IMG/VR virus record: IMGVR_UViG_2508501111_000003
Coordinates: 14,762-78,761 of that record
From: a virus
Taxonomy: Duplodnaviria > Caudoviricetes
DNA: 64,000 bases
Strand: one strand, 5' to 3'
Within the stretch, counting starts at the first letter, position 1. The number at the start of each line of letters is the position of its first letter. The position numbers and the translations under genes were made by a program. Below are positions 1 to 62,681 of the stretch, one piece after another. The notes beneath the pieces were generated by a model. It was not told where the DNA came from. It was given only the letters and a program-made list of their open reading frames with translations, and made no database searches.

Positions 1-230
1 CCGCTCGCATGGTTGTACCCCAAGGCGGCATGGTCGGCACGATGGCCAATGCGTTGCCAACGAATCAACCATCTGCGCCGTCGATCATCAATCAGATCAC
101 CATCGATGCGCGACAGGCCACCAATCCGGCAGCCATCAAAGCCGCCGTTGAAGAAGTCTGGAACAAGAAGATGAAAGATATTTTGGGCAGCGCCACCATC
201 CGGCTCAAAACCAATCCATTTGGCAAATAA
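1..230 (+). CDS. Tape measure protein C-terminus, unit A (5'-truncated by window)
   Basis: MVVPQGGMVG...KTNPFGK is nearly identical to the C-terminus of the TMP at 31029-35072. Confidence 0.9.
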   Translation, partial: ARMVVPQGGMVGTMANALPTNQPSAPSIINQITIDARQATNPAAIKAAVEEVWNKKMKDILGSATIRLKTNPFGK

Positions 231-266
231 CCAACCAAACCCTACCGCCTAAAGGAGGCGGCTTGT

Positions 267-1640: not shown

Positions 1641-1649
1641 GAGGGGTTC

Positions 1650-3329: not shown

Positions 3330-3333
3330 ATAA

Positions 3334-3374
3334 AACAAGCGTGCAGGTGGGAACATCCCACCTGCACGCTTGTT
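3334..3374 (+). terminator. Intrinsic terminator ending the unit A late operon
   Basis: Perfect 19-bp stem AACAAGCGTGCAGGTGGGA-aca-TCCCACCTGCACGCTTGTT just after the stop codon. Confidence 0.9.
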
Positions 3375-11332: not shown

Positions 11333-11385
11333 CTAAAACCACAAACGACCCGCTGGGGTCGCTTGTGGGAGAGAAGAGAGAGGAG
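11333..11385 (-). terminator. Terminator ending the unit A relaxase operon
   Basis: CACAA-CGACCC...GGGTCG-TTGTG stem with T-rich tail on the minus strand. Confidence 0.8.
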
Positions 11386-11438
11386 AAGGTTTGACTTCAG
11401 TATACCAGAAGATGTGGGTTATCACTATTAGAATGTTA

Positions 11439-11912
11439 TTAATGCGCTCCACCCTCAGCATCGGTTGATGGTTGGGGATTGCCTGCTTGGAGCGATTTCC
11501 AACGTGTATAGTTCCCTTGAAAGGTATCTTGGCACATTGGTGCAGCCTCAAGTCCCCAAAGCAGATGTCGAATCGTTTCGGCGCGATCGCGCGTTTTATA
11601 CATAATTCGTGCGTGGGGCCATGGCGCAGTTGCTGGCTCCGCCCATGCTTCAACTGTATACGCCCCTTGCCAACCAATAATACAGACTGACTCTTGATCG
11701 GGGTATGCTTCACGACGAAACGTTAAGTACATCATGCTTCTTCCAACAAGTAATGGCGTTGGATAGGGGATGACCACGAGATCGGCAAGCAGATCAAGAT
11801 ACATTATATAGACAGCTCGATAGGGATCATCCGGTTCGGACGTGCTTATTGAGAATGTTAATTCTTCTGTCACTGTGCGGTTTTTGGTATTTCGATATTG
11901 ATGGAGTTCCAT
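11439..11912 (-). CDS. Hypothetical protein, paralog of 18672-19112
   Basis: 157 aa, near-identical to the unit B copy, which stops 11 codons earlier. Confidence 0.8.
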   Translation of the reverse strand: MELHQYRNTKNRTVTEELTFSISTSEPDDPYRAVYIMYLDLLADLVVIPYPTPLLVGRSMMYLTFRREAYPDQESVCIIGWQGAYTVEAWAEPATAPWPHARIMYKTRDRAETIRHLLWGLEAAPMCQDTFQGNYTRWKSLQAGNPQPSTDAEGGAH

Positions 11913-12011
11913 CGATGCTCCTCGCTCCTATTCAGACTATTGGCAATCAAAAGTATAGCAGCATGATGTATTGGTGGATAGCATGTCTGGTAGCTGCAGT
12001 TGCTCCATTCC

Positions 12012-12950
12012 TTATGCGATGATCTTCTCAAACCACGCTGCCCGTAAAAAGCGATGCGGCTGCTGCATGCGTTGGCCTTGCTTGGTGTACTGGGCTGTCC
12101 AGATCGGCGTGAGAATACCCGACTCACGCACCTCGTCGATCGTCGTAATCAGCAATTGACTGCCAGGCCAGCCGATTTCCCACGCATCGAGCACCGCCCG
12201 TTTGCGGCGTTCGCTCGGCACGGTAAAGGCAATCAGCGGCCAGTTGTAGCGCCCTTCCCAATACTTCGAGCGATACAACTCCCCATACGAATGCGCCTTC
12301 CCCGTGATAATACTCAATTCCTCAGTTCCGCGATCAATTTCAATCGCATAGAGTTGATCAATTTGCTTTGATTGTTGACCAATCCCCAGCCACGGATAGA
12401 GTGACGAGCGCTCACAGTCGGGCTGCGTTGCATCGGCCCAGCGGCGCACCACGACGATGCCATCGGCGCGTGGCCGTGCGGTTGGGCCTAAGTCCATCTC
12501 AATATAACTACTCATTCCCACAATGCCAGGCACATACGGCAAGGACTGAATCAAGCTAGTGATGACCTCGGCATATTCAATCTGGTGTTCAGCTTGATGC
12601 TGGAGATTGACCATGGTGGGAGCCAGCCGCTCACTGCCTTCTTCGAGCATCGGAAATGCCTGTTTGACGATCTCCCAGCCGAGCGGCGTGAGACTATACA
12701 AACGGCCATGGCGTGTCCAGCCCAGCGCACCACGCGGGTCATAGCCATGCGATTGAAAGTGTTCGCAATAGGTGAGCAGCTTGGCATCGACGAGCTTGGA
12801 CAACGTGCGATTAACCGTCTGAATCGTCACGGTAAACGGATGACCCCACGCGGTACGCAGGTGGCGAGACAGCAAACGCCCAAGCCGAGCAACGAGCAAC
12901 AGGATGTGCAACTCGATGGGATTGAGGCCAATAGCGAGCGATGAAGCCAT
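12012..12950 (-). CDS. Replication-relaxation (Replic_Relax-like) protein, unit A
   Basis: GAGGAGG RBS; N-terminal wHTH, then HQIEYAEV, RPRADG and AIEIDRGTE (PD-(D/E)XK-type motifs). Confidence 0.8.
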   Translation of the reverse strand: MASSLAIGLNPIELHILLLVARLGRLLSRHLRTAWGHPFTVTIQTVNRTLSKLVDAKLLTYCEHFQSHGYDPRGALGWTRHGRLYSLTPLGWEIVKQAFPMLEEGSERLAPTMVNLQHQAEHQIEYAEVITSLIQSLPYVPGIVGMSSYIEMDLGPTARPRADGIVVVRRWADATQPDCERSSLYPWLGIGQQSKQIDQLYAIEIDRGTEELSIITGKAHSYGELYRSKYWEGRYNWPLIAFTVPSERRKRAVLDAWEIGWPGSQLLITTIDEVRESGILTPIWTAQYTKQGQRMQQPHRFLRAAWFEKIIA

Positions 12951-13198
12951 GAACAACCTCCTCAGGATGAAAATGGTGGCTATCCAGCCTGTTAAAGAAT
13001 GTCGGCACGACCAAACGGCCAGTTTAGGCCATTCTGATGGGCTATTCTTTTTTTGGCGGTTTGTGGGTGATAGGAATGCGCTCTGAATGCAGAATGAACA
13101 CGGTTTGAACACTGAGAACCGAGAATAACCAAATGACCGTATTCGCCCCTCCCCGATAAACAGCCGCGTCTCTGTTGTGAGGTGCGGCTGATCTTCAC

Positions 13199-17332: not shown

Positions 17333-17632
17333 GTGGCATTCATAATTCTCTTATGATGGGCTTGCGCTACTCTAGTAGCGCAATTTTATTTTTAGAACGA
17401 ACTATAACAAGGTTTATGATTGAATAGTCCTTACTACTTAGGGCGGCCATTTGCTCCATTCCCCTAATAACCGTTCAAACCGTGTTCATTCTGCATTCAG
17501 AGCGCATTCCCATCACCCACAAACCGCCAAAAAAAGAATAACCCATCAGAATGGCCTAAACTGGCTGTTTGGTCGTGCCGACATTCTTTAACAGGCTGCA
17601 TAGCCACCGTTTTCATCCTGAGGAGGTTGTTC

Positions 17633-18571
17633 ATGGCATTATCGCTCTCCGTTGGCCTCAATCCCATCGAGTTACACATCCTGCTGCTCATTGCTCGCCT
17701 TGGGCGCTTGCTGTCTCGCCACCTACGCACGGCGTGGGGCCATCCGTTTACTGTGACAATTCAGACGGTCAATCGCACGTTGGTCAAGCTCGTCGATGCC
17801 AAACTGCTGACCTATTGCGAACACTTTCAATCGCATGGCTATGACCCGCGTGGTGCGTTAGGCTGGACGCGCCATGGCCGCTTATATAGTCTTACGCCGC
17901 TCGGCTGGGAGATCGTCAAACAGGCCTTTCCCATGCTCGAGGAAGGCAGCGAGCGACTGGCTCCCACGATGGTCAATCCCCAACATCAAGCCGAGCATCA
18001 AATTGAATATGCCGAAGTCATCACCAGTTTGATTCAGTCATTACCCTACGTGCCTGGCATTGTCGGGATGAGCAGTTATATCGAGATGGACTTAGGCCCA
18101 ACCGCACGGCCACGCGCCGATGGGATTGTCGTAGTCCGCCGCTGGGCTGATGCGACGCAACCAGATTGTGAGCGCTCGTCACTCTATCCATGGCTGGGGA
18201 TTGGTCAACAATCAAAGCAAATTGATCAACTCTATGCCATTGAGATTGATCGCGGAACCGAGGAGTTGAGTATTATAACGGGGAAAGCCCACTCGTATGG
18301 GGAGTTGTATCGCTCGAAGTATTGGGAAGGGCGGTATAGTTGGCCGCTGATTGCCTTTACGGTGCCAACCGAACGGCGCAAACGGGCCGTGCTTGATGCG
18401 TGGGAAATCGGCTGGCCTGGCAGTCAATTGCTGATTACGACGATCGACGCGGTGCGCGAGTCAGGCGTGCTTACACCGATTTGGACAGCCCAGTATACGA
18501 AACACGGGGAACGGATTCAGCAGCCGCATCGCTTTTTGCGGGCTGCATGGTTTGAAAAGATTGTGGCGTAA
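17633..18571 (+). CDS. Replication-relaxation (Replic_Relax-like) protein, unit B
   Basis: 312 aa, same length and motifs as 12012-12950. Confidence 0.8.
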   Translation: MALSLSVGLNPIELHILLLIARLGRLLSRHLRTAWGHPFTVTIQTVNRTLVKLVDAKLLTYCEHFQSHGYDPRGALGWTRHGRLYSLTPLGWEIVKQAFPMLEEGSERLAPTMVNPQHQAEHQIEYAEVITSLIQSLPYVPGIVGMSSYIEMDLGPTARPRADGIVVVRRWADATQPDCERSSLYPWLGIGQQSKQIDQLYAIEIDRGTEELSIITGKAHSYGELYRSKYWEGRYSWPLIAFTVPTERRKRAVLDAWEIGWPGSQLLITTIDAVRESGVLTPIWTAQYTKHGERIQQPHRFLRAAWFEKIVA

Positions 18572-18671
18572 GAAATGGGTGGAGAATCGCATTGACTAAA
18601 CCATGCGATTCATTGATATATCAAGCTGCTATACTGAAGGACGCACAGCCCACTATGAGCGAGGAAGATCG

Positions 18672-19112
18672 ATGGAACTCCATCAATATCGAAATAGCAA
18701 AAATCGCACGATTATTGAAGAATTAACGTTCTCGGTAAACACGTCCGAACCAGATGATCCCTATCGAGCCGTCTATATCATGTATCTTGATCTGCTCGCC
18801 GATCTGGTGGCCGTCCCCTATCCAACGCCATTATTTGTTGGAAAGAGCATGACGAACTTAATATTTCGTCGCGAAGCATACCCTGATCAAGAGTCAGTCT
18901 GTATTATTGGCTGGCAAGGGTGGTATACAGTTCAAGCATGGGCAGAGCCAGCGACTGCGCCATGGCCCGACGCACGAATTATGTATAAAACACGCGATCG
19001 CGCCGAAACGATTCGGCATCTGCTTTGGGGACTTGAAGCTGCACCACTGTGCCAAGATGCTATTCAAGGGAACTATACGCGGTGGAAATCGCTCCAAGCA
19101 GGCAATCCCTAA
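18672..19112 (+). CDS. Hypothetical protein, paralog of 11439-11912
   Basis: GAGGA RBS, 146 aa. Confidence 0.8.
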   Translation: MELHQYRNSKNRTIIEELTFSVNTSEPDDPYRAVYIMYLDLLADLVAVPYPTPLFVGKSMTNLIFRREAYPDQESVCIIGWQGWYTVQAWAEPATAPWPDARIMYKTRDRAETIRHLLWGLEAAPLCQDAIQGNYTRWKSLQAGNP

Positions 19113-19198
19113 CCATCAACCGATGCTGAGGGTGGAGCACATTAATAGTCTTCTAATAGCAATAAGCCGTATGTTCTGGTATACTAACGTCAAACCTT

Positions 19199-19251
19199 CT
19201 CCTCTCTCTTCTCTCCCACAAGCGACCCCCAGCGGGTCGTTTGTGGTTTTA
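19199..19251 (+). terminator. Terminator after the unit B relaxase operon
   Basis: CACAAGCGACCC...GGGTCGTTTGTGGTTTT. Confidence 0.8.
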
Positions 19252-19371
19252 GCAGACCATTGCCAAGAGTTTATCCTTCGCGATGCCTCTGGTTATAAAG
19301 TTTATCTCAATAACTACTGCAAACCGCGCTTCACTCCGAGGCGCGGTTTTGTTTTTAGGAGCAATCAGCCA

Positions 19372-27779: not shown

Positions 27780-27878
27780 ACGACAAAACGACGGTCGCCG
27801 GAGCGCACACGCCGTTTTGTGGAAGCATCACTTCATATCAAGGAGTACTTGGTACTACCCCAAGTGCTCCCTTCTTTA

Positions 27879-29558
27879 TTAGCCCTGCGCCAGCCAGAGA
27901 TCGAGTTGCTTGATCGGTGCTTCGGGCGTAACACTCACCTCACCTGTCACGAGATTAACCGAGGTTTCCGCCAGTGTATAACTGCGTTTGTTGATCGCAC
28001 CGGATAAATCGCCGATGGTGATCACGTCGCCCCGACTGAGCAGGTCAAGCGGCTCTCTTACGTTGTACTCATTGCGCACGGCGCGGACACCCAAGCTGGC
28101 GCGAACGGTCGGTGCAGCATCGGTTAGGGCTACACTGCGCAACGTGGCCGCTTCGGTCGCGTCGGTGGTTTCGCTGGCAATGGTGCGCTGGCGGACAATG
28201 CCTAAGGCATAGCGCTCGCTGGCGTTTTCCGCAAACGCGGTATAGAGTGGCTGGTTACTCGCGTTTTTGTAGGCAAAACGTACCTGATTGGTTGCCTCGC
28301 CCAGTGCTTTCTCTAACTCAATCGAGCCATCGACCAAGGCGAAGGTGCGGCCCACTTCTTTAGGGCCAAAGTACAGATATTGGGCATCGTCAACATAGGT
28401 GACATACTGCGCCTGATCAGCCAACTCCTGCACCACGCTTAAGCCCGATGCAGCCGACCATACGGCTTCCAAACAATCGCGACTACTCTTGCTGATCCGC
28501 GCACTGCTCTGCTTGATCCCGCTACCCGGGTTGGTTGTGAGGTTGCGGCTTAAGACATCCTCCACAATCTCTTTGTCCGTGACCACAATCCCGCGCACCG
28601 TGCTGCCCAGAACGTGGGTCTTGGTGAAGGCGGCTTGGAATTGGGTCGCGGTGACGGCCAAGACTACGACGCTCTCACTATTCGCGCCGCCGCTTTCGAT
28701 GGTCAGGCGTTGGCCAACCGCGATATTGGCGGTACTCGCCACGGTCACAAAGGCTGTGCCGATGGCAATCGCGCCGCTGGTCGTGGTGTTCACCATATTG
28801 GTGGTGACGGTGGCCACGCGGAGGTTGCTGATCTTCAGGTAATCATCGCCTGTTTCGCCAATATAGGTTGCCAGCGCCGCGTTGTAATACATCGCAACAC
28901 TAACCAAGGGCCGCGCCGCGAAGGTGAAGCACATGGAGCCAGTTTGGGCCGTGCCGTTGCCGAGGGCAATCGTGGTGGCTCCGGTTTGGCTGCTGTAGTC
29001 GCGCTCGGCAGCGAGGAAGGTCGCCAGCCAATTGGTTGGGCCTTTGAACCGCCAATCGAACTGAATCACCTGAAAGCCGGTAGTGTTCAGATTCGCCGGA
29101 ATGAACATGGATTGACGGCCAATCCCCTTGGCGTTCGAGAATTGTTCGTTTTTGCGCGGAGACAGGCTGATCGTGCTATCGTCGTGGCGCATCTCCCAGC
29201 GCTCGGGCGTGGACGAGGCGGTTTCTACGGGCAACCAGCCATCGAGCTTGGTGACTGACCACCAGCCATCGTACTCCAAGTCATCGAGCGTGACGATCAG
29301 ATTGTGGCATTCAATCGCCAAGCCCTGATCAATCAAGCGCAGGGTTACGGTGCGATAGCGCAAAACCTTGCCATCGTTGCGTTGCACCACAGCGGTCAAT
29401 AATCGCGCTTGGGCATACAGCGTTTTGGCGATGAACGGCGCAAGGCGCACACTGGCGGTTAGGCCATTGGTGCTCAAGGTTGCGTCCGTGACCTGGCGAT
29501 CAAACCGTGCCAGTTGCACATTGGTGAAGGGATCATAAAGCGAAATCGCGTACTGCAT
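27879..29558 (-). CDS. Phage minor tail/baseplate hub-like protein, unit B
   Basis: 559 aa, last gene of the late operon. Confidence 0.75.
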   Translation of the reverse strand: MQYAISLYDPFTNVQLARFDRQVTDATLSTNGLTASVRLAPFIAKTLYAQARLLTAVVQRNDGKVLRYRTVTLRLIDQGLAIECHNLIVTLDDLEYDGWWSVTKLDGWLPVETASSTPERWEMRHDDSTISLSPRKNEQFSNAKGIGRQSMFIPANLNTTGFQVIQFDWRFKGPTNWLATFLAAERDYSSQTGATTIALGNGTAQTGSMCFTFAARPLVSVAMYYNAALATYIGETGDDYLKISNLRVATVTTNMVNTTTSGAIAIGTAFVTVASTANIAVGQRLTIESGGANSESVVVLAVTATQFQAAFTKTHVLGSTVRGIVVTDKEIVEDVLSRNLTTNPGSGIKQSSARISKSSRDCLEAVWSAASGLSVVQELADQAQYVTYVDDAQYLYFGPKEVGRTFALVDGSIELEKALGEATNQVRFAYKNASNQPLYTAFAENASERYALGIVRQRTIASETTDATEAATLRSVALTDAAPTVRASLGVRAVRNEYNVREPLDLLSRGDVITIGDLSGAINKRSYTLAETSVNLVTGEVSVTPEAPIKQLDLWLAQG

Positions 29559-29567
29559 TGACCCCTC

Positions 29568-30944
29568 CTACAGTGGAATAATCGCGCCGTTGAGGCGTGA
29601 TGCTTGGACGGTCATGGTGCGAGCACTGGCGGCATTTTCGGTGGTGGCACTCCAGGCATTGCCATTGACCGCAAACAAATTGACATCCAGCTGGAGATCC
29701 TTCGTCAATGCCAAGGGATTGCTATCGGTGGGCACGGCTTGGGTCACGCCTGCGCTGGTGTAGGTCAAACTGGCATCGGGATTGCTCAGATAGCGGGCAT
29801 CGACGGTGATCGTGGTGGTCGTGCTCGGGAGCGGCAGCGATGCGAACGGAATCACACTCCAGCCGCCTGCATCGGCGGCAATCGTCAGGATGGCGTTGAT
29901 GTAGATCGCTCCAGCGTTGGTCAGATTGGTCAGCTTGAGTTGATGACCCGTGATTAAGTAGGGTGCGCTGGTTTGGCCAAGCGGGACAATGATCGGCGTG
30001 GCACTATCGACGAGGGTCGCACGGCCTTCGATCAACGCGCCATTGCTCCGCACGACAGGCGTAATGAGGAATGGTGCGGTGGTTTTGAGCATCGCCCATT
30101 GAATCACCGAGCGGCTATTGAGCGGCCCAATATCCGTCAAGACCCCGTTCGGTGAATAGGATGGCGTGACGCTGGGAAAGTTGTAGAAACAGACCAGATT
30201 ATCAGTGGCATAGACTCCTGATGCCTGAATTTGGCGTGACCAGCCAAAGACACTGGGACTGGGCGCAAACAACCACGCCGCCGATTTGACCATTTTGCCA
30301 CGTGGCGCGACGGCAATCAATCCACTAATGGTTGCGCCGTTGGTCGCTGCGGCCACGTTCAGGGTGAGGTTGGTGGGGCTTTCCAGCGGGGCTGCGCTGC
30401 CGCTGAAATTCGGCTGATGAATAGTGGCAATATTGGCACTGGCGCTGGTGCTGCTGCTCACACTACTGGCGGCGCAACGCAGCGGACGACAGAGAAAGGT
30501 GACAGGCACATTCAGAATCCACCAAACATCATTGTCTTGGATCAAGGTGGGCGATGTGCCAACCATGGGCGTATCGCCTGCGCGGCCCATCACCAGCATA
30601 TCGCTATGGACGGTGGTATCACTGGGCTTGGTACGCCACACGACTGCGCTACTATAGCCTTCTTCATAGAAACGCTCAGCATCATCGAGCAAGACCATCA
30701 GCGCGTGATAGGCGGCCCACGCCTGATCTTCATTGGTTCCGCCGAAGATGTTCACGGCAAACGATTGCACGCTCGGCTGAAACTGTTCGCCATTGGAGAT
30801 CAGACGGCGGTCACGCTGCGGCACTTGCGGCTGCCATGAGCCATCGACGAGCCAATAACAGGTGGTTCCTTCGGTTGGGTTTACGCCAGCAGGCATGAAA
30901 TCAATCACGACGCTGCCATTGCGCAAGAGTTGCATGGTTGTCAT
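29568..30944 (-). CDS. Phage tail protein (distal-tail position), unit B
   Basis: AGGAGG RBS at 30944, follows TMP. Confidence 0.8.
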   Translation of the reverse strand: MTTMQLLRNGSVVIDFMPAGVNPTEGTTCYWLVDGSWQPQVPQRDRRLISNGEQFQPSVQSFAVNIFGGTNEDQAWAAYHALMVLLDDAERFYEEGYSSAVVWRTKPSDTTVHSDMLVMGRAGDTPMVGTSPTLIQDNDVWWILNVPVTFLCRPLRCAASSVSSSTSASANIATIHQPNFSGSAAPLESPTNLTLNVAAATNGATISGLIAVAPRGKMVKSAAWLFAPSPSVFGWSRQIQASGVYATDNLVCFYNFPSVTPSYSPNGVLTDIGPLNSRSVIQWAMLKTTAPFLITPVVRSNGALIEGRATLVDSATPIIVPLGQTSAPYLITGHQLKLTNLTNAGAIYINAILTIAADAGGWSVIPFASLPLPSTTTTITVDARYLSNPDASLTYTSAGVTQAVPTDSNPLALTKDLQLDVNLFAVNGNAWSATTENAASARTMTVQASRLNGAIIPL

Positions 30945-31028
30945 AAATCCGCCCTCCTTTGGGCGGGGGTTTGGTTGGGTTAATGGTCGTGTGTGCAGGG
31001 TTGTTTCAGCCCTGCACACGGTCAATCG

Positions 31029-34000
31029 TTATTTGCCATATGGATTGGTTTTGAGCAGGATATTGGCGCTACCCAAAATATCTTTCATCTTCTTGTTCCA
31101 GACTTCTTCAACGGCGGCTTTGATGGCTGCCGGATTGGTGGCCTGTCGCGCATCGATGGTGATCTGATTGATGATCGACGGCGCAGATGGTTGATTCGTT
31201 GGCAACGCATTGGACAGCGTGCCCACCATGCCGCCTTGCGGGACGACCATCCGCGCAGCCATGCCCTTGGTTTCTTCGGCGGTGAACACCTCCGCGCCGC
31301 GTGGAATATTGCTAATACCTGGTGGCAGCAGGGCAAAGTCACCACCCCGCGTGCGCATGGCTTCGATGCCTTTCCACGGCTCGGACGCAAAGGCCAAACC
31401 GCCCGCCCAGTTTTTCACGCCGTCTGCTAAGTAGGGAATCAGTGGAATACCACCGAAGCCCAAGGCGGAGCCAACGGTATTCGCGCCTTCAATGAGTTTG
31501 TTGACGGCGGTGATCATCAGGTTGAGTGGGGATTTAATGCCACTGAGGATGCCGCGAAAGGCTTCTACAATCCCGTTGGTAATTTCATCCCACACCGCAG
31601 CACTGGCATCCTTAATCCATTGCCATGCCACCGCAACCCCGTTTTTGAATTGCTCCAAAAAGCCATCAAGGTTGTCGAGCACACCGCCAAACATCGTGCG
31701 GAAGTAGTCGCTGATGCCATCCCACGCGGTGCTGATGCCCGTGCCAATGAGATCCCACGCCACCACCAAGAGGTTCCAGACGACCTCCAGTGCTCCCTTC
31801 ACGATGTCGATGATGCCATTCCAGAGTCCAGCAAAGACATCCTTGATTGCCGTCCATGCGCCTGACCAATCGCCCTGAATCACGGCGCTGACGGTTTTGA
31901 TCACGCCTTGAATCACGCTCATGGCGGCTTCAACGATGCCCTTGATGATGCTCCATGCGCCACTGAGCAGGCCCGTGATCTGGTCTTTGTGGTCGCTGAG
32001 GAAGGTGGCGATGCCGTGGAAGAATGGAATGATCGCACCATTGATCACATCCAGTGCGCCATCAATGACGACCTGAATGGTTTCCCACGCCATCGTCAGC
32101 ACGCCTTTGATTTCTTCGCCGTGCTGCTCGAGGAAGGTTCGGATTGCGCCGAGTGCCGTTTGAATCACCGTGCCAACCGCGCCCAGCACCGTGCTGACAA
32201 TGCCCTCAATCCGGCCCCACGCATTGCGGAGGAACGTCACGATCTGCTCGCCGTTCTCGCGGAACCAGCTGGTGATGATGCCCCACGCGGTTTGTACCAT
32301 GGACTGAATCGATGTAAAGACCTCGGTCGTGATGGTGCGAATAGTGGCGAAATTGGTTTGCCACGCCAATCCCAGCGCTGCGGCTCCAGCTACCAGCAAG
32401 CCCATCGGTGAAACGAGTGCGGCTACCGCTCCCGCCAAACCGGAGAACAGGGACACCAGTCCCATACCCGTGAAGAGTGCCGCAATGCCCATGAATGCGC
32501 CTTTAACCGATTCAATAAACGGGGCGGCTTGGCTGAAGGCGTTGCGAATCCGGTCGATCAAGGACGGTACAGGCGCAGTGGCAGTCGCCATTTCGACTTG
32601 GCGATCCTTCAAATCAGCATAGCGATCGGCGGCTGCCTCGGCTCCGGTGGCTGCATCCTGCATGGATTGATTGGTTTCGTCCGCCCCATCCTTGACCTTG
32701 GTGAATGGTGGAACGAGCGCACCCACGCCTTTGGCTGCTCCCTTGGCGGCTCCGCCTACACCCTTCATCTTCTCGGCTGACGCTTCCAGCTCTTTTTGTT
32801 GCTGGGCTTCGAGCTGCAAAATCTGGGTTTTGATGCGCCAGTATTCGGATTGATCGGCGTTGGTATTGGCCAATTCACCTTGTAGGATTGCTAGTTTGCC
32901 AGCGGTGTCAGCGGTGGCATACTGATAATCCCGCTCGGCTTTGGCCGCTTCGTCCTGTTTGCGTTTGACTTCCTCCAGCTCGCGCTGGCGTTGTTTCTCG
33001 GCTTTGTTAATCTCCTGCTGAATGTCGTTGTATTCGGCGCTGCCCTCGGCATATTGACCCTGTTCTTGGCGCAAGCGAGCTAACTGATCCTCAGTGGACA
33101 TGAGGCTTAACTCATAGTCGCGTTGCTCCTTGGCCAGTTTATTGAGTTCCGCCTGACGTTTCTGCTCTTCCTGATTAATCTGCCCTTGCAGTCGCCAATA
33201 CTCGGCATCGGTCGTAGCATAGGCGGCTTGCTTGTCCTTGAGCATCTGCAAGCGATCGACAGTTCCGGCAATACTGAATGTGTATTCCCACTGCGCACGG
33301 GCCGCCGCTTCAGCGTTCTTGGCGGCATCGTCCATCGGGGATTTGCCACCGCCACCTCCGCCACCACTCGCTTTGGGCTTTTTGGTTTCTTGCTCGGCAG
33401 CTTTAGCCTGCTCCTCGCGAATCTTTTGGCGCAGCTTCAGCGCGGCCAATTCGAGCTTGGCCTGTTCGCGGTCGCTGTCTTTACCACCCGTGCTGTTGAT
33501 CAGCGCCAAGAGCTGCTGTTCTTGGGCTGCTTCCTTGACCCGCTGCTGCGCATCTTCAATGGATTTCAGTTCGGTTTCGAGATAGGCCAGCAAGCCATCG
33601 GTGGGCAGCCGCGCATCATTCCAGCCATCCATCCAGACTTGGGCGGTATCGCGACCCCATGTGTCGATGTTGGGTAATAACTTTGGTGGGGAGTGCGGTT
33701 CAAGCCAGTAGGTGATAAGGTCGCCAATGTATCCCAAGCTATCGACGACCGCACCAGCACCACCCATAATCCCGTTGGCTAACTGGGTGGCAATGTTGCT
33801 GCCCCATTGCACGGCGCTTGATGCGAGGTCAATGAACAGACCAAAGGCTTCGCTCGCGGTGCTGGCAAAGTCAAGGAAATACGGGCCAACCATCTGAACC
33901 GCTGCGCCAATCCGCTCAAACGCTCCCACGACCACGGCGCTGATGCGGGGCATGGCTTCGGCCAACCAATCGGCAAAGGCTTGCACGGTGGGGGCTAACG

Positions 34001-47630: not shown

Positions 47631-47695
47631 AGATCCCCAACCACATCAGGAGGAAGCGAAGGCCAGGCAAGAAGGGGTTTGCACAGAAAGGAGGA

Positions 47696-47741
47696 AAACA
47701 AAAAGCAACAGGTTAAATTGGTCTGTGCAGACCCCTGTTGC
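47696..47741 (-). terminator. Leader terminator right after the late promoter
   Basis: GCAACAGG...CCTGTTGC followed by TTTTTGTTTT; inner GGTCTG/CAGACC hairpin. Confidence 0.8.
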
Positions 47742-47749
47742 TTGCGAGG

Positions 47750-47777
47750 ATTATAGCACGTCTGTGCTGTTTGTCAA
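47750..47777 (-). promoter_or_regulatory. Consensus sigma70 late promoter, copy 1
   Basis: TTGACA-N16-TATAAT on the minus strand; TATCCCA repeats at 47794, 47804 and 47813 upstream. Confidence 0.85.
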
Positions 47778-47980
47778 TGAAAATAAAGCGAATTATCCCA
47801 ACTTATCCCACATATCCCACATCTTTAATAAAAATGATGTTGCAATTGAAATCCTTACATAGAGCGAATCTGATAATCTTCAATTATAGGCTCTGTCTAT
47901 GATTCAATGTTGTAACATACAACATGAAACTCTAAATCTTTTTTTTCGTAAAGAGGCAAAGTTAAAATGGAAGGAATTAT

Positions 47981-50867: not shown

Positions 50868-51426
50868 ATTTAATATAGTGGGTTGTAGTCTATCACCTCC
50901 TAACGAACGCTACAAGACAAACATTTGTGCTTAAACAAAAACACCACCCAACTGGGTGGTGCTTGCAGTCCCCTCGCGAGCCTTAGTAACCTTGAGTGGC
51001 AGAACTACGGAAACATAAATCCTCACGATTATTGATCGTAATCCCTGCTGAGGATTCAGGTCTTTCGAATCGATGAATATATTGGTTATAGAATCTGGGC
51101 AGATAACGCTTTTATCCCCCAAAGAGGATTCAGGTCTTTCGAATCTAAACCTAAACGATTCTAGTACCAACTGGACATACCGGTTTTAATCCCCCAGAGA
51201 GGATTCAGGTCTTTCGAATAGGCTATTGACGCGATGTTTATCCCTATGTGGGAAGAGTTTTAATCCCCCAGAGAGGATTCAGGTCTTTCGAATACCTTTA
51301 ATTCGATTCAAACCGTCGCGTAAAACTTGGGGTTTTAATCCCCCAGAGAGGATTCAGGTCTTTCGAATACCTTTAATTCGATTCAAACCGTCGCGTAAAA
51401 CTTGGGGTTTTAATCCCCCAGAGAGG

Positions 51427-53362
51427 AGGGCTGGGCTTAACATAGAATTGGTTCCCCTGCCCGATCCATCAGGGTCGGGGGGCGACACCGATCCGCCGTA
51501 GCGCGACACCCATGCCCCAATCGGGGTCGTTTTCGACACCAGGCGACTCTCTATCGGGTACGATACGGGTATCAGATCCAACCATCCCCAGAATAGGAGT
51601 CGCTGATGCTGGATCGCATCATACCAAACATCCTTCGTCGCTTCAAGCGCCCTGTGGCCACCGTGCCCGTGTCCGATGGTGCCCTGCTGCCTACCCATCC
51701 CCGTCGTCCCTGCCCGCTCTCCATGCCGGATCTCCCCCCGATCATTGCCGCTGATCCCACCGCTGCTGCGGCGCATCAGTGGCTCGCCCCCATTCCGTGG
51801 CATGCTTTGCCGCCGCTCAGTGACCGCCCTCGGCCTGGGCCACGCCCCGCGCCGCGTGCCCCCTTTCTCGCCGCGTTCCTCCTCAAACTCGATCTCCAAT
51901 TGCCCTCCATGGGGCATTTGCGCCGCTATCTCCTGCGCCATCCCGCCCTCGTCTGGACGCTCGGCTTTCCCCTTCGGCCTGACCCTGCCGCCCCGCTCGG
52001 CTTCGATGTCGCCGCCAGTGTCCCGTCGCGTCGTCAGTTTGCCCGTGTCCTGCGAACCTTACCCACGCCCATGCTCGACTTCCTCCGCATGGCGCTCGTG
52101 CGGCGCATTCGTGATGCCCTCCCCCCCGATCACCACGCCACCTTCGCCGACACCATTGCGGGCGATACCAAGCACATTTTGGCGTGGGTCAAAGAGAACA
52201 ATCCCAACCGCTTTGCCCCGGATCGCGCGAAGAAGCAGGTGCAACCCCCCGGTGATCCGGACTGTCGGCTCGGAGTCAAGCGCCGGAGTAACCAGCAGCC
52301 GACCCCCACCACCGATGGTCAATCGCCAACCCAGAGTAAGGCCGAAGCCTACTGGGGCTACGCCAGTGGCATTGTCGTCACGCGCACCCCCTTTGGCTCA
52401 ATCGTGCTTGCCGAACATACCCAACCGATCAATGCGGGCGATATGACCTATTTTGACCCGCTCATGGCGCAGGTGGAGCAGACGCTCGGTCGCCGACCGC
52501 GTAATGGCGTGTGGGATGCCGCCTTCGACAGCCAACGGGTCTACACCTACTTCCACACGGCTGGCGGGATGGCGGCGGTTCCGGTGCGGAAGCCCAACCA
52601 GCCACGGCAGTTTTCGCCCGACGGCGTGCCGCTGTGTGCCGCTGGTTTGGCCATGCCGCAACAGTTTACGTATGCCATGAACACCAATGGCCCGCCACAA
52701 GAGCGGGCACGCCATCGCTGTCCGTTGCTGTACCCGACTGCCACCGGCGAGCCATGCCCAACCAATGACAAACACTTTGCGACGGGCGGGTGTGTCACGA
52801 CGATCGGGACGCAAGTTGGGGCAACGCTGCGCTGGACGATCGATCGTGGGTCAGCGGCCTATAAAGCCTTGTATCGCGAACGCGCGTTGGTCGAACAGAT
52901 CAACAGCCAAGCGTATGCCTTGGGGATCGAATGGCCAAAACTGCGTCGTCAAAGCGCGGTCACAGCGTGGACATCCTTAATCTATGTGGTGATTAACCTG
53001 CGCGTCGTGCATCGCCAGCAGGGAACACACGACCCGATCCACGACTAACGTGGCATGCGTCTCGTCCGTGAATCGCCAGGGGGATGGCTTGGATGGATGG
53101 ACGGACGCAGCCACAGCGATCAGGGAACAGCCACAGCGGCGGATCAGGGATGATCGGTCGGCGTGATCGGCTGTCCGTGCATCAGCCAACGCCGCGCAGC
53201 AGCACACCGATGGGCTGCCGCTGCGCGGGATTGCGGGTAGCATAACGGGCGATGGGGCGGATCTGCCCACAAAAAAACCACGCAAAGCGTGGTGATCGGC
53301 CAGCGGCGGCGCGGAATGAGCGAAAAAACCTGCCAAAACCACGCAGGAATTCGTCCAGCCCT
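51427..53362 (+). mobile_element. Insertion sequence (DDE, IS4/IS5/IS1182-like), 1936 bp
   Basis: Terminal IR AGGGCTGG/CCAGCCCT; 10-bp TSD CCCAGAGAGG at 51417-51426 and 53363-53372. Confidence 0.92.
51606..53048 (+). CDS. DDE transposase
   Basis: AGDTK, WDAAFD and YRERALVE (YxxRxxxE) motifs; Cys-rich insertion. Confidence 0.9.
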   Translation: MLDRIIPNILRRFKRPVATVPVSDGALLPTHPRRPCPLSMPDLPPIIAADPTAAAAHQWLAPIPWHALPPLSDRPRPGPRPAPRAPFLAAFLLKLDLQLPSMGHLRRYLLRHPALVWTLGFPLRPDPAAPLGFDVAASVPSRRQFARVLRTLPTPMLDFLRMALVRRIRDALPPDHHATFADTIAGDTKHILAWVKENNPNRFAPDRAKKQVQPPGDPDCRLGVKRRSNQQPTPTTDGQSPTQSKAEAYWGYASGIVVTRTPFGSIVLAEHTQPINAGDMTYFDPLMAQVEQTLGRRPRNGVWDAAFDSQRVYTYFHTAGGMAAVPVRKPNQPRQFSPDGVPLCAAGLAMPQQFTYAMNTNGPPQERARHRCPLLYPTATGEPCPTNDKHFATGGCVTTIGTQVGATLRWTIDRGSAAYKALYRERALVEQINSQAYALGIEWPKLRRQSAVTAWTSLIYVVINLRVVHRQQGTHDPIHD

Positions 53363-54448
53363 CCCAGAGAGGATTCAGGTCTTTCGAATTCTTACAGGCG
53401 AACAGGCCGCTGAATACGGTCTGCGTTTTAATCCCCCAGAGAGGATTCAGGTCTTTCGAATCTTGGCTTAGATACGGCCAAAATGTATTATTACACGGCA
53501 GTTTTAATCCCCCAGAGAGGATTCAGGTCTTTCGAATTTATTATTAACCGCATGGGTGGCTATGGGGCCATCAACCCCGTTTTAATCCCCCAGAGAGGAT
53601 TCAGGTCTTTCGAATAATGAATGCGGTAGAGAAATTTCGCCCCAGAATCGATTTAGTTTTAATCCCCCAGAGAGGATTCAGGTCTTTCGAATCGATAGTT
53701 CACCCGTTCTGAGGGTACTCACCCAAAGGTTTTAATCCCCCAGAGAGGATTCAGGTCTTTCGAATGCGCTTGAGATAGCCCAGCCGCCCGCCACCAACGT
53801 TGCCAAGGTTTTAATCCCCCAGAGAGGATTCAGGTCTTTCGAATTTTGTCGTAGACAGCTACGATTTGATCGTAGTGCTCAGTTTTAATCCCCCAGAGAG
53901 GATTCAGGTCTTTCGAATAACCAAATTCCTGTGATCGAAAATGGCTTCCTGAAGGGATGTTGTTTTAATCCCCCAGAGAGGATTCAGGTCTTTCGAATAT
54001 AGCCGAGACTGGCGACATCGCGGGTTCAATTATATGGGTTTTAATCCCCCAGAGAGGATTCAGGTCTTTCGAATCAACGTCAGCGGGGTGCTGGCTGTAG
54101 CTGCGGATTTGATGGTTTTAATCCCCCAGAGAGGATTCAGGTCTTTCGAATAATAAGCAAGCTGATAGTATGGTTCGTAGCGCCAAAGGTGTTTTAATCC
54201 CCCAGAGAGGATTCAGGTCTTTCGAATTAATCGCTCACTAGCCTATTGAATTGGCGGGGCCAATGTGGTTTTAATCCCCCAGAGAGGATTCAGGTCTTTC
54301 GAATCAAGAACTTGCCCAAGTTGCTCGAACGTATTTCAAGTAGGTTTTAATCCCCCAGAGAGGATTCAGGTCTTTCGAATCTTGTAAGCGTTTTGATTTG
54401 ACCAGTGTTGGGCGGTTTTAATCCCCCAGAGAGGATTCAGGTCTTTCG

Positions 54449-54600
54449 AATATACCCCATTTTTTAGGGCTTTGCAAGGGGCTAAAATGAACGGTTTGCG
54501 CGGTCCGCTTAAATTTGTTCAATTAATGCCTATTCTGCGCTACAAATAACGGTGGAAAACTGCCTTTTAGACCATTGGAATGGGATCGCGCGGCATATAC
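54449..54600 (-). promoter_or_regulatory. CRISPR leader with candidate promoter
   Basis: Noncoding, next to perfect repeats; TTGCAA-N17-TATATT at 54477-54449 on minus. Confidence 0.6.
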
Positions 54601-54656: not shown

Positions 54657-54823
54657 ATCAGGAGGAAGCGAAGACCACGCAAGAATGGGCATGCACAGAA
54701 AAGAGGAAAACAAAAAGCAACAGGTTAAATTGGTCTATGCAGACCCCTGTTGCTTGCGAGGATTATAGTGCGTCTGTGCTGTTTGTCAACAAAAATAAGC
54801 CAACGTATCCCACATATCCCACA
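54657..54823 (-). repeat. Late-control region copy 2 (promoter 54762-54789, terminator 54707-54753)
   Basis: TTGACA-N16-TATAAT and the GCAACAGG/CCTGTTGC terminator are both conserved. Confidence 0.93.
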
Positions 54824-59180: not shown

Positions 59181-59861
59181 GGTTCCACTAATCCTTTTGG
59201 GTTAATCGGGGCAAAACTATACCGTGTTCGGATTAATCATTTGGTGTATTACGTTCGCGAATGAATATATTCAAAAGCGATATTTCGTTTCTTAAATGCA
59301 CTACCATTGCACTACCGTATGAAAATTGCTGATTTTTACCGTCATTTAATCCCGTTTATAAGAATCTTGTTAACATCTGACGTGACAAAGTGATTTAGGC
59401 GTAGTTCGGGCGTTTTTTGCACTTGCAAAAATAAAACGTTTCAATCATAATTTTTGCTATTGCATCGGCATTATTTGCTCACATCCTCGTTGCCGATGCA
59501 CACTCATTCACCCCAGTTAGAGGTACAACACCATGGCGTGTGACCATCTTCTCCGCTCAGGGGTTTGTGGAGGGCTTGATCTTGTGGTCAATGTCCGCAT
59601 AGAAACCACTGTATCCGCTGGGTCACTGCATCATGCCACGACTGCTGATGCAGATGCCCAGGTTCACCATGTTCGTGTCGGGATAGAACTGTTGGAGCAG
59701 TATTCGGTAACACACAACGATGACACCGAAGTGCTTGAATGGATCGCGAGTGTTGGACTTGATCAACAAACGCTTGATGAGGATCAATCAGTGGGGGGGC
59801 GACCAGTGGTTGATGATCAAAACCAAGCGGGTCGTGGGCAACCCGCTTGGCAGGACAGCGA

Positions 59862-60236
59862 TCAGGCGTTCGTGGACGTTTCGACTTTCCAGCGCAAATG
59901 AGACAGGATAGCAGCACGATCATCGGGTGAGAGTTGACCCAATAAGTTCAGAAACATGCGTACCTCGGGGACGGCAGCGATGAGGACTTGGATGGTGGCA
60001 TCCTCATCGGTGGGGTGAGCGTCCACGGGAATTCCACAGGCCTCAACGAGCTGGCGGAAGGGCAGGTTGAGGCTAATGGATAAGGCATTCAAGGTACGAA
60101 GATCGGGCATGACATCGGGCTTATTGATGAGATTGGAGAGGGTTGAAACGGCAATGCCAGAGCGTGTGGCAAGTTCCCGCAACGACCAGTTGCGGGAAGC
60201 CAGTTCTTGCGACAGGAGACTGGATAACCCAAGCAT
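59862..60236 (-). CDS. XRE-family HTH repressor paralog 1
   Basis: WSLRELATRSGIAVSTLSNL...PDLRTL. Confidence 0.92.
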   Translation of the reverse strand: MLGLSSLLSQELASRNWSLRELATRSGIAVSTLSNLINKPDVMPDLRTLNALSISLNLPFRQLVEACGIPVDAHPTDEDATIQVLIAAVPEVRMFLNLLGQLSPDDRAAILSHLRWKVETSTNA

Positions 60237-60282
60237 AAAACACCTCTCGATGGAATGTGATGGAACGGACGAAAACAAGGGA

Positions 60283-60310
60283 TTGACAGATGTTCGATTT
60301 AGTGTACAAT
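60283..60310 (+). promoter_or_regulatory. Rightward promoter divergent from paralog 1
   Basis: TTGACA-N16-TACAAT. Confidence 0.65.
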
Positions 60311-60541
60311 CCGACACATAATACACGAGGTTGAAGAAACAATCAACCGGAGACGGAACTCCACGGCAAGGTGGAGCTATTTTGGGATAAAGTGTTCGAT
60401 TTGAAGAACAGTTCAAGGAATGATTATAATCATTAATCTACTGCTGTCGGATAGGTTAGTCGGATGAACGAGTTTAGAATTGCAGCTATGCTAAAACTGT
60501 ATGTCGGTTTTACGTGGGAGTTCATTGTATGGAATACCAAA

Positions 60542-60943
60542 TCAAGATTGATCAACTTCTTGGTTTATATTTTTCTGACGATGCAGACGACGCATTTCAA
60601 TATATGCCAGAACATCAGCTTGATCGAGAGGAGAAAATGTCATCATCTCTTCCACAAGACGCTGAAAGTCTGGAATTGCTGAAACAATAGTTTGTAGTCG
60701 TTGGCTGTCTTCTGATTTAGCACTAGAGACATCGAAGCCACATGCAGCAATAATTCTAGCTAGCGGGATGTCAAAAGCTTGAGCTAATGTTGCAAGATTT
60801 TCTAATTTTGGTATCTGATTTGGGTTTTTGAGGATTTTAGATATGGTTGAATCAGGAATTCCTGATATTTCAGACAACTTTGTCTGATTCCACCCTCGTG
60901 CATCCATTTCAGATTTGATGAGATAAATCAAACCTGTAGTCAT
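60542..60943 (-). CDS. XRE-family HTH repressor paralog 2
   Basis: WNQTKLSEISGIPDSTISKI...PKLENL. Confidence 0.92.
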   Translation of the reverse strand: MTTGLIYLIKSEMDARGWNQTKLSEISGIPDSTISKILKNPNQIPKLENLATLAQAFDIPLARIIAACGFDVSSAKSEDSQRLQTIVSAIPDFQRLVEEMMTFSPLDQADVLAYIEMRRLHRQKNINQEVDQS

Positions 60944-61091
60944 TATTAGGCCTTTGTTGATAGTAAATAATAATAACCATTACTTTATTTTAGAGGATAA
61001 CATATGAGCCATCTACGAGACAATTCCAGTATGTGCGAAAATTTACGTTCAAAGATTATCAAATTTGTAGATTCTATACTTGAAGCACGAA

Positions 61092-61460
61092 CTACTTCTT
61101 GTGAAGATACCCTTGAATATAAGCCTGAATTACACGTAAATCCTCAGCTTGGAGTTGTGCTAGATCTGAAACAACAGATCGTAGCTCCGGTAATGAGTTT
61201 AACAGAATCGAAATCTGTTCCTCTGGTAACTCTCCTCGAAGATCGATATCAAATCCGCAGACTGTAATCAACCGTGCTAGAGGGATATTTAATGCTTGAC
61301 TTAATCGATCAAGGGTTTCTAGTTTTGGAACCGATTGAGGGTTCTTGAAGATATTACTAAGCGTTGATCGATCAATCCCTGCGCTATCCGCAAGCTGGCT
61401 ATCTCGCCATCCTCTCGCAGTTAGTTGAACACGTAAGAATACTGCTAGTGTATTGGGCAT
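61092..61460 (-). CDS. XRE-family HTH repressor paralog 3
   Basis: WRDSQLADSAGIDRSTLSNI...PKLETL. Confidence 0.92.
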   Translation of the reverse strand: MPNTLAVFLRVQLTARGWRDSQLADSAGIDRSTLSNIFKNPQSVPKLETLDRLSQALNIPLARLITVCGFDIDLRGELPEEQISILLNSLPELRSVVSDLAQLQAEDLRVIQAYIQGYLHKK

Positions 61461-61568
61461 TTAATTCACCAATAATTTCTTGAGAATGTTTATAAATTTA
61501 TATTTTGAGGTATAGCATGAAAAAGCTGGGAGAATTGGCAGCCATGATTGATCGGATAACCAAAAACC

Positions 61569-61955
61569 TTATTTCCGATGGTTTTTTAGTGTTTCCAGAT
61601 AAATCAGAACTGAGTTTACCTCATAACTGTCTAATTCAAGAAGATGCTCTACTACAGATTGATACTCAGGCATTGCATCCATTACCGAAATTAAGCGTTG
61701 AGCTTGAATCGTAGATGTTTCACTGAATTCGAGATCAAATCCAGCCATTTCTATAATTCGCCAGAATGGTAGCTTAAAGGTTTTTGCGAATTTAACCAGA
61801 GTTTCTAGGTCAGGAGTCACATCAGGATTATCACGAAGATTTTTTAATCCCGTATACGACACGCCAGATTTAATCGACAGTGCACGTAAACTTCCCTCGA
61901 CTTCTGAGTGTTGTTTGATCTTATTTGAGAGTTGTCTCATTGTAAAAAATACCAT
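61569..61955 (-). CDS. XRE-family HTH repressor paralog 4
   Basis: SLRALSIKSGVSYTGLKNL...PDLETL. Confidence 0.9.
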   Translation of the reverse strand: MVFFTMRQLSNKIKQHSEVEGSLRALSIKSGVSYTGLKNLRDNPDVTPDLETLVKFAKTFKLPFWRIIEMAGFDLEFSETSTIQAQRLISVMDAMPEYQSVVEHLLELDSYEVNSVLIYLETLKNHRK

Positions 61956-61970
61956 ATAGCCTTTATAGGC

Positions 61971-62351
61971 CTATGTTGTGGCTCGGCGGCGTGCTAATAC
62001 TTCAAGATAGGCAAGCACTCCATCGATATCTTCTTTATCTAATTTCTGAAGGTGTTCTAATACAGGTTTATATTGAGGCATTACTTCCATAAGTTTGGAT
62101 AATCGTTTTGTATGATCAGGATCGGTTGTATCTAAATCTAGATCATATCCAGCCATTTCTACGACACGCCAGAGAGGTATATTAAATGCTCTAGAAACTT
62201 TTGATAAAGTTTCTAAACTAGGAATAACGTTGGGATTATCAATAATATTAGCAAGGGCAGATTTGGATACTCCAGTTGTTTCCTCGAACTCACGCCAAGT
62301 CCACTCGTTATCCTTCATCTGCTTTTTAAGAAAAATGGATAATTCTGTCAT
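61971..62351 (-). CDS. XRE-family HTH repressor paralog 5 (cI position)
   Basis: WTWREFEETTGVSKSALANI...PSLETL; GAGG RBS. Confidence 0.92.
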   Translation of the reverse strand: MTELSIFLKKQMKDNEWTWREFEETTGVSKSALANIIDNPNVIPSLETLSKVSRAFNIPLWRVVEMAGYDLDLDTTDPDHTKRLSKLMEVMPQYKPVLEHLQKLDKEDIDGVLAYLEVLARRRATT

Positions 62352-62404
62352 TCTGACCTCGTGGACAAGCCGATAATACTTAGTATAAGGCATTGATTGT
62401 ACTC

Positions 62405-62433
62405 TTGACAACTACAAATAACTACACTAGAAT
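62405..62433 (+). promoter_or_regulatory. Early rightward promoter (pR-like)
   Basis: TTGACA-N17-TAGAAT. Confidence 0.8.
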
Positions 62434-62477
62434 GTCCGATAGATAGTCAAAAAAACTTTCAAAAGTAAAGGAGTTCT

Positions 62478-62681
62478 ATGAATAATTTGCAAGGTCGATT
62501 CACTGATGAACAACGTGATAAGTTAGAAAAAATATCGAAACAAGCAAAGGTTCCTATCGCAGCGGTATTACGATGGGCGGTAGAGGCCTACAATCCACCT
62601 ATTTTTTTATCTACTTGTCCGATGAATAGTCAAAATGACAATGAAAAATATAACCAACCTGAACAAAACCAAGCAGCATAA
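62478..62681 (+). CDS. Ribbon-helix-helix (CopG/Arc-like) regulator in cro position
   Basis: LQGRFTDEQRDKLEKISKQAKVPIAAVLRWAV; AAGGAG RBS. Confidence 0.75.
   Translation: MNNLQGRFTDEQRDKLEKISKQAKVPIAAVLRWAVEAYNPPIFLSTCPMNSQNDNEKYNQPEQNQAA

Follow-up and report, generated by a model that had tools for sequence, protein, structure and literature searches.

The stretch of DNA analysed here in full, called the window below, comprises 64,000 nucleotides of a Herpetosiphon genome (6.79 Mb in three contigs; window at G000:C1:1554136-1618135) and carries part of a prophage in which five co-oriented XRE/HTH_3 open reading frames (ORFs) of 122-133 amino acids (aa) lie in tandem on the minus strand at 59862-62351. 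Sequence comparison with related elements identifies this array as a chimera of two blocks, one consisting of a ribbon-helix-helix (RHH) gene with repressors of types T5 and T4 (RHH5-T5-T4) and the other of repressors of types T3, T2 and T1. We lean, with modest confidence, towards the explanation that this is the immunity region of an integrated temperate phage, in which orphan repressors were left behind by swaps of the immunity cassette and have probably widened superinfection immunity by stacking.

The five genes are numbered P1 to P5 towards the RHH gene and represent types T1 to T5, respectively. P1 (59862-60236, 124 aa from the ATG), P2 (60542-60943, 133 aa), P3 (61092-61460, 122 aa) and P5 (61971-62351, 126 aa from the ATG) all passed the curated gathering threshold of 23 bits for Pfam HTH_3 (PF01381), with 34.7, 41.3, 42.6 and 34.6 bits (E 2e-8 for P5). 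The fast-evolving paralog P4 (61569-61955, 128 aa) lies 15 bp downstream of P5 and is probably co-transcribed with it. It had no Pfam match and was recognized by a profile of the five-paralog family (E 2e-50), so that its membership in the family follows from homology to the paralogs only. Pairwise identity among the five is 21-41%, with P4 and P5 at 41%, and the mean identity is 36% over the helix-turn-helix (HTH) domain and 23% over the C-terminal domain, the least conserved part. A preliminary description of this DNA had listed five co-oriented HTH proteins of this size with differing recognition helices (VSTLSNLI, DSTISKIL, RSTLSNIF, YTGLKNLR and KSALANII), and the alignment bore this out, the helices being the same within each type and different among types. 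Two more of its observations were confirmed: no match to Peptidase_S24, the domain of RecA-stimulated autocleavage of the lambda CI/LexA type, was found with Pfam in any of the five paralogs, and P1 is richer in GC (54.9%) than P2-P5 (37.2-42.5%), the genome average being 50.9%. None of the five ORFs is broken, and each is preceded by a Shine-Dalgarno-like sequence. In the AlphaFold2 model of P5 (mean pLDDT 75), five helices predicted with confidence form the HTH domain, and a disordered linker joins it to three low-confidence C-terminal helices (pLDDT 53-73). No Foldseek match to this model was obtained at E <= 0.001; the weak whole-chain matches were two-domain XRE repressors, namely the SinR-SinI complex, DdrO, Stl and the phi106 repressor, with SinR (1b0n_A) at E 0.24 and TMq 0.40, the C-terminal part of the model being of low confidence. 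SinR was also the best sequence match in the PDB (E 5e-7), over the HTH domain only and with nothing matched beyond it, and an Atlas feature search with residues 70-126 gave unnamed matches only, all <0.9.

Upstream of P5, a 126-bp spacer (62352-62477) separates the repressor from the divergent gene RHH5 (62478-62681, plus strand, 67 aa), the first gene of the rightward early operon. An RHH gene had been predicted at this place and is indeed present; its own match to RHH_3 is weak (E 0.002, below the cut-off), and it aligns with the type-specific partners of other elements, including the RHH_1-positive partner of P6, a sixth family member located outside the window. The spacer contains overlapping divergent promoter-like sites, TTGACA-17-TAGAAT on the plus strand (62405-62433) and TTGTCA-18-TATACT on the minus strand (62411-62382), with 11/12 and 10/12 consensus matches, and the switches of the sister elements have the same promoter architecture. 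P5 recurs at 99% identity, together with the same RHH gene, on two metagenome contigs. The layout of CI/Cro-type switches, in which a repressor diverges from a small DNA-binding partner over overlapping promoters, is found in P5/RHH5 and in none of P1-P4. As one component of the explanation favoured above, and with the same limited preference, P5 and RHH5 would constitute a working CI/Cro-like switch. Genes in cro position had been claimed at 60464, 61004 and 61518 as well, and this did not hold. The frames concerned (at 60464, 61004 and 61505/61518) have no family matches and for the most part run on the opposite strand over the 3' end of the next paralog. The frame at 61004 is open in the sister genome G003 too, yet overlaps the conserved P3 coding sequence, the DNA around the ORFs at 60464/60514 lies outside the block common to other species, and such ORFs are not kept where related elements differ. 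Cro-like partners for P1-P3 were rejected because these ORFs are antisense, lack family matches and have unconserved surroundings outside the shared blocks, which leaves P5 as the only paralog with a partner gene.

Of 41 related genomes searched with a family profile, 11 contained the family, most of them of the same genus, and a collection of 5.8 billion proteins contained only 21 family clusters, in Herpetosiphon and in metagenomes; no homolog in cultured phages was detected by tblastn with P5. Three metagenome contigs that were examined carry a single member each, divergent from a leftward string of genes, and on two of them phage-type genes are present as well, Amidase_2 on one and Thy1 plus DCD on the second. 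Sister species have between one and three family members in the syntenic element, and the arrays are nested in order. Read from the RHH side outward, they consist of T8 behind RHH8 in G001, T8-T1 behind RHH8 in G002, T6-(171-aa gene)-T1 behind RHH6 in G005, T2-T7 behind RHH2 in G006 and T3-T2-T1 behind RHH3 in G003, the window having T5-T4-T3-T2-T1 behind RHH5. Within a type, ortholog identity is 90-97% and the recognition helix is the same throughout; between types, identity is 21-41%. Every paralog of the window has a counterpart of 90-99% identity in another genome or metagenome contig, that of P4 being found in the metagenome contig L020 only. At the amino acid level P3 is 92% identical to G003a, P2 90-92% identical to G003b and G006a, and P1 96-97% identical to its orthologs in G002, G003 and G005. 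Repressor type is linked to RHH type, T6-RHH6 and T8-RHH8 being found in two genomes each and T5-RHH5 here and on the two metagenome contigs. Two of the types that stand behind P5 and P4 in the window are primary repressors elsewhere: T3 is paired with and faces RHH3 in G003, and T2 likewise faces RHH2 in G006. In a maximum-likelihood tree of the five and their relatives, an analysis proposed in the preliminary description, the window genes fell into separate well-supported clades on both sides of the deepest split, P4 on a long branch, and were united in 0/200 bootstrap trees; they hence do not form a single clade of recent duplicates. Recent in-situ duplication is ruled out by the tree and by the cross-species orthologs.

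The joint between the two blocks could be located closely. The contig L020 matches the window from 62734 to 61497 at 97.8% nucleotide identity (RHH5, T5 and T4) and beyond the seam runs into an unrelated XRE gene, and G003 matches the window leftward from 61485 at 87% (T3, T2 and T1). In a three-way alignment the matching partner changes within ~12 bp (61485-61497); the P3 start codon lies 25-37 bp downstream of this change, and no long stretch of homology marks the joint. Similarly, the match of G006 to P2 begins only 14 bp upstream of the P2 ATG. The 5' flank that survives in front of the orphan repressor ORFs is therefore 14-37 bp long, and the cognate RHH genes, promoters and palindromes are gone; it follows from both joints that the orphans keep their ORF and ribosome-binding site and have lost their native promoter, operators and RHH gene. 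The orphan blocks T2-T1 and T3-T2-T1 persist in several species. The recombination history of the array is well supported. The idea of serially captured lysis-lysogeny switches, put forward earlier, is thereby upheld as to the distinct types, the RHH pairing of T2 and T3 in sister prophages and the chimeric blocks, and has to be given up as to the unit of capture, which was not the whole switch, only an ORF with its 14-37 bp of flank. The gene that follows T5-T4 in L020 (L020:1271-1660) encodes a 129-aa XRE protein of a different family and of similar two-domain length, from which it appears that unrelated repressor families can occupy the same array slot.

At the T3, T2 and T8 switches, a palindrome specific to the repressor type overlaps or abuts the RHH promoter. 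The T3 switch of G003 contains TTGTACAC-N7-GTGTACAA, the T2 switch of G006 contains ACTTAAGTGG-N6-CCACTAAAGT over the -10 of the RHH promoter, and the T8 switch contains TTCAAGAA-AA-GTTCTTGA. In the eight genomes of the genus a single copy of the T3 palindrome was found, at the G003 switch, and a single copy of the T2 palindrome, at the G006 switch and not in G003; both are absent from the window genome even when two mismatches are allowed. Since each is found only where its type is switch-proximal, the palindromes track primary status and not the presence of the gene. They are regarded as candidate operators; of operators that repressor and partner would share, candidate palindromes or repeats at the switches are all that was found.

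Pairs heading the switch in both genomes gave dN/dS values of 0.04-0.06, and the values for non-proximal paralogs were close to that (0.09-0.20): 0.09 for P3 vs G003a, 0.12-0.16 for the T2 pairs, those of P2 with G003b and G006a lying at 0.12-0.15, and 0.13-0.20 for the P1 orthologs, where dS was only ~0.1. Across the species comparisons dS reached 0.5. At the level of codon substitutions P2-P3 and P1 are thus under purifying selection, and the low dN/dS together with the intact ORFs and their Shine-Dalgarno-like sequences makes decay unlikely.

These results could be explained as follows. Recombination with a heteroimmune relative would have replaced the resident RHH gene, promoters and operators by a new repressor-switch-RHH cassette, and with the crossover just upstream of the ribosome-binding site of the old repressor, the old ORF would remain intact downstream of the new one. 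P2, P3 and probably P4 would be orphan repressors from earlier swaps of this kind. The retained orphans may be read through from the P5 promoter or transcribed from weak promoters of their own, and their products may form homodimers with a DNA specificity of their own for which the host has no operator. Upon entry of a phage of type 2 or 3 they would shut its early RHH promoter, which would amount to stacked superinfection immunity. If the orphans are active, one prophage would immunize its host against several immunity types of related phages, and a swap of immunity type would no longer free a relative from a lysogen that keeps the older repressors. Expectations on the evolution of superinfection immunity and heteroimmunity would change in that case.

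Several points weigh against this explanation. The sample consists of eight species genomes of the genus and a few contigs, and the relatives are not independent. Each candidate operator stands on a single site. The native promoters of P2 and P3 are gone, and a promoter scan of the region gave 11 sites, vs 8.6 expected by shuffling, which is not above background. The HTH of P4 is divergent and without a Pfam match, so that DNA binding by this protein is uncertain. The C-terminal scaffold shared by the paralogs could permit heterodimers that spoil independent immunities. Finally, P1 and its relative P7 are never paired with an RHH gene and P7 resides in a non-phage plasmid, and hence at least one member of the array may not be an immunity repressor.

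More tentatively, the stacking might be both directional and selected, each turnover of immunity leaving an expressed orphan. The array would then record the past types in order (T1/T7, then T2, T3 and T5-T4) and would also serve as an immune memory of repressors that accumulates against heteroimmune relatives, comparable at the protein level to the CRISPR array located a few kb away in the same prophage; we consider this possible rather than probable. The nested arrays as such offer a rare ordered record of immunity-cassette replacement, and they supply at least five presumably orthogonal repressor/operator pairs from the little-studied Chloroflexota.

The distal paralog differs from the rest in several respects. 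P1 lies in a GC-rich block of 1.5 kb (~58.9-60.42 kb), which G002, G003 and G005 share at 81-89%, it is the fixed last array member in four species, and in none of the arrays compared does it stand next to an RHH gene. Its upstream region (60237-60420), ~185 bp that are nearly invariant in four species, has face-to-face promoter-like sites at 60283-60310 (plus strand) and 60346-60318 (minus strand), a hairpin at 60359-60376 (fold z-score -2.6) and two AAATCGAACA boxes that occur nowhere else in the window (2 found vs 0.17 expected). The promoter noted earlier at 60283 is thus present as a promoter-like site and is 100% conserved in four species. It is near consensus and is followed ~45 nucleotides on by the hairpin, which has a T-rich tail; judging from this arrangement, 60283-60376 could specify a short RNA, antisense or leader, that acts against the P1 promoter. 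A convergent ORF for an acidic protein of 122 aa (59533-59901, plus strand, GC 53.4%), without a Pfam match, is open and conserved in G003 and G002 and is a candidate gene travelling with P1. The nearest relative of P1 in its own genome is the seventh family member, P7, a P1-like, GC-rich gene on the plasmid contig C2 (L003:7962-8345), outside any obvious phage context and divergent from a 1509-aa STAND/TPR-like ORF. Orthologs of P7 are the distal array member in G004 and G006, and a copy in G002 (G002x) stands alone on another contig. P1 is a separate autonomous module with conserved promoters and boxes of its own, and it may form a second regulatory circuit and not be an immunity gene added by accretion. 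Some paralogs, chiefly P1, could regulate prophage cargo or maintenance and not the early promoters; candidate targets are the cas-less CRISPR array, the 122-aa ORF convergent with P1 and the conserved block rich in repeats at 58.9-59.5 kb. The invariant promoters, boxes and downstream DNA of the P1 block in four species, the missing RHH partner and the STAND/TPR-like gene beside P7 would all fit such a role. Yet the AAATCGAACA boxes are found only upstream of P1 itself, where autoregulation fits equally well, and P2-P4 are left unexplained. We think such a role rather improbable.

Somewhat lower still we place the possibility that the resident switch uses the paralogs jointly, in a regulator of several components or a hetero-oligomer on the model of SinR with SlrR/SinI that tunes lysogeny and does not serve defence. 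All five have the HTH and three-helix C-terminal scaffold in common, the sequence match to SinR (HTH only) and the weak fold matches to SinR-SinI, DdrO, Stl and the phi106 repressor point in this direction, and the close pair P5-P4 recurs in L020. Against a fixed set of partners stands the fact that close relatives with the same early genes manage with one to five types, and T2 and T3 head coherent switches of their own elsewhere. Moreover, it is the C-terminal domain that is least conserved (23% vs 36% for the HTH), and one contig, on the basis of its gene table only, has T5 without a T4-sized gene after it. That the extra paralogs are inert hitch-hikers, functionless and as yet undecayed debris of immunity swaps, would agree with the lost promoters, operators and RHH partners and with the long branch and degenerate HTH of P4, but is the least credible of these alternatives in view of the intact ORFs with Shine-Dalgarno-like sequences, the dN/dS of 0.09-0.20 across species at dS up to 0.5, and the persistence of the T2-T1 and T3-T2-T1 blocks in several species.

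The setting of the array agrees with an immunity region. The minus strand at 29.5-47 kb encodes, besides TerL and TerS, the tape measure and major head proteins and a protein of head morphogenesis. Rightward of the array the plus strand carries the 67-aa RHH-like gene, then small ORFs that are conserved, genes for two ATPases (AAA_24 and DnaC/IstB-like), for a MazG-like protein and for a large serine recombinase, with the host gene aspS coming next. The integrase and the host flank on the aspS side are the same in G003 and G002, and head genes homologous to those of the window are found in G002 and G006. By its gene content the element is a serine-integrase prophage beside aspS, and the flanking late, early and integrase genes identify the array as the left-hand part of the immunity region in a mosaic lineage of temperate phages. 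The TerL type of the window was not found in the sister species, despite the head genes common to G002 and G006. A second TerL copy (92% aa identity) lies ~900 kb away, at G000:C1:653983-655413, and indicates another related prophage, in which no member of the repressor family was found. Window 1-3334 is a 3.4-kb inverted duplicate (85% identity) of 27875-31322, with the two tail-side genes that adjoin the tape measure gene, and the duplication extends to DNA immediately left of the window. P6, the sixth family member (type T6; L001:12399-13121, corresponding to G000:C1:1550398-1551120), lies 3.3 kb left of the window in a prophage remnant and faces an RHH_1-positive gene; its T6-RHH6 pair also heads the G005 switch. 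The inverted duplicate, P6, its RHH gene and fragments of early genes (C1:1550.4-1552.5 kb) suggest that a second, rearranged prophage remnant flanks the window prophage. Another inverted duplicate (11333-13110 vs 17473-19252, 88.7%) carries Replic_Relax-domain genes and has further copies elsewhere in the genome. A direct repeat (47645-47821 vs 54657-54823, 87%), of which a copy also occurs in the G001 element, flanks the cargo that separates the late operon from the immunity region. A repeat array with a period of ~75 bp (51050-51427 and 53363-54451) is split by a GC-rich DDE transposase gene (51606-53048), and similar arrays occupy the syntenic position in the G003, G005 and G001 elements.

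A search of the literature on stacked, tandem or orphan phage repressors and on Herpetosiphon prophages found no published description of such an array, which is not proof of its absence. Lysogenically expressed prophage genes of actinobacteriophages such as Sbash, CarolAnn and Butters defend the host against other phages (PMC6426596, PMC6426606, PMC7542560), and immunity specificities diversify among related temperate phages of cluster A (PMC6550527). Protection of the lysogen by prophage genes and diversifying immunity are common to those systems and to the one proposed here. Stacked paralogous repressors were not seen in the abstracts of these papers or with the terms searched in PMC6550527, whereas in the system proposed here retained orphans would multiply the repressor-operator immunity of the prophage. 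A toxin-antitoxin reading of the HipB/HigA kind was rejected, as there is no conserved partner ORF between or beside P2-P5 and the HipB matches cover the HTH only. The XRE repressors of the DdrO/IrrE and ImmR/ImmA pairs, which are inactivated by an M78 metalloprotease, resemble the paralogs in size and two-domain layout, and DdrO is among both the sequence and the fold matches. Unlike in those pairs, the element and its surroundings lack an M78/ImmA gene: Peptidase_M78 (PF06114) matched the genome only at C1:1157678 and on C3, the nearest ~400 kb from the element, and induction of the ImmA/IrrE type was rejected for this reason. SinR and SlrR of Bacillus subtilis likewise have ~110-130 aa, an N-terminal XRE HTH, a short helical C-terminal domain and paralogs encoded nearby. 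The C-terminal likeness, however, is a weak fold match only (TM ~0.4-0.48, pLDDT 53-73), no HTH-less partner resembling SinI was seen here, and the setting is a phage switch. The lambdoid CI/Cro regions (imm-lambda, imm434, imm21 and P22 immC) have the same layout, with an HTH repressor divergent from a small DNA-binding partner over overlapping promoters and with an immunity cassette that is swapped as a unit among otherwise similar phages. They differ in that the partner here is an RHH protein and not an HTH Cro, and in that the repressors here lack an S24 domain. We rate the array as a variant of the CI/Cro immunity region in which the old repressors, instead of being replaced, are retained downstream of the new one as a stack of five.

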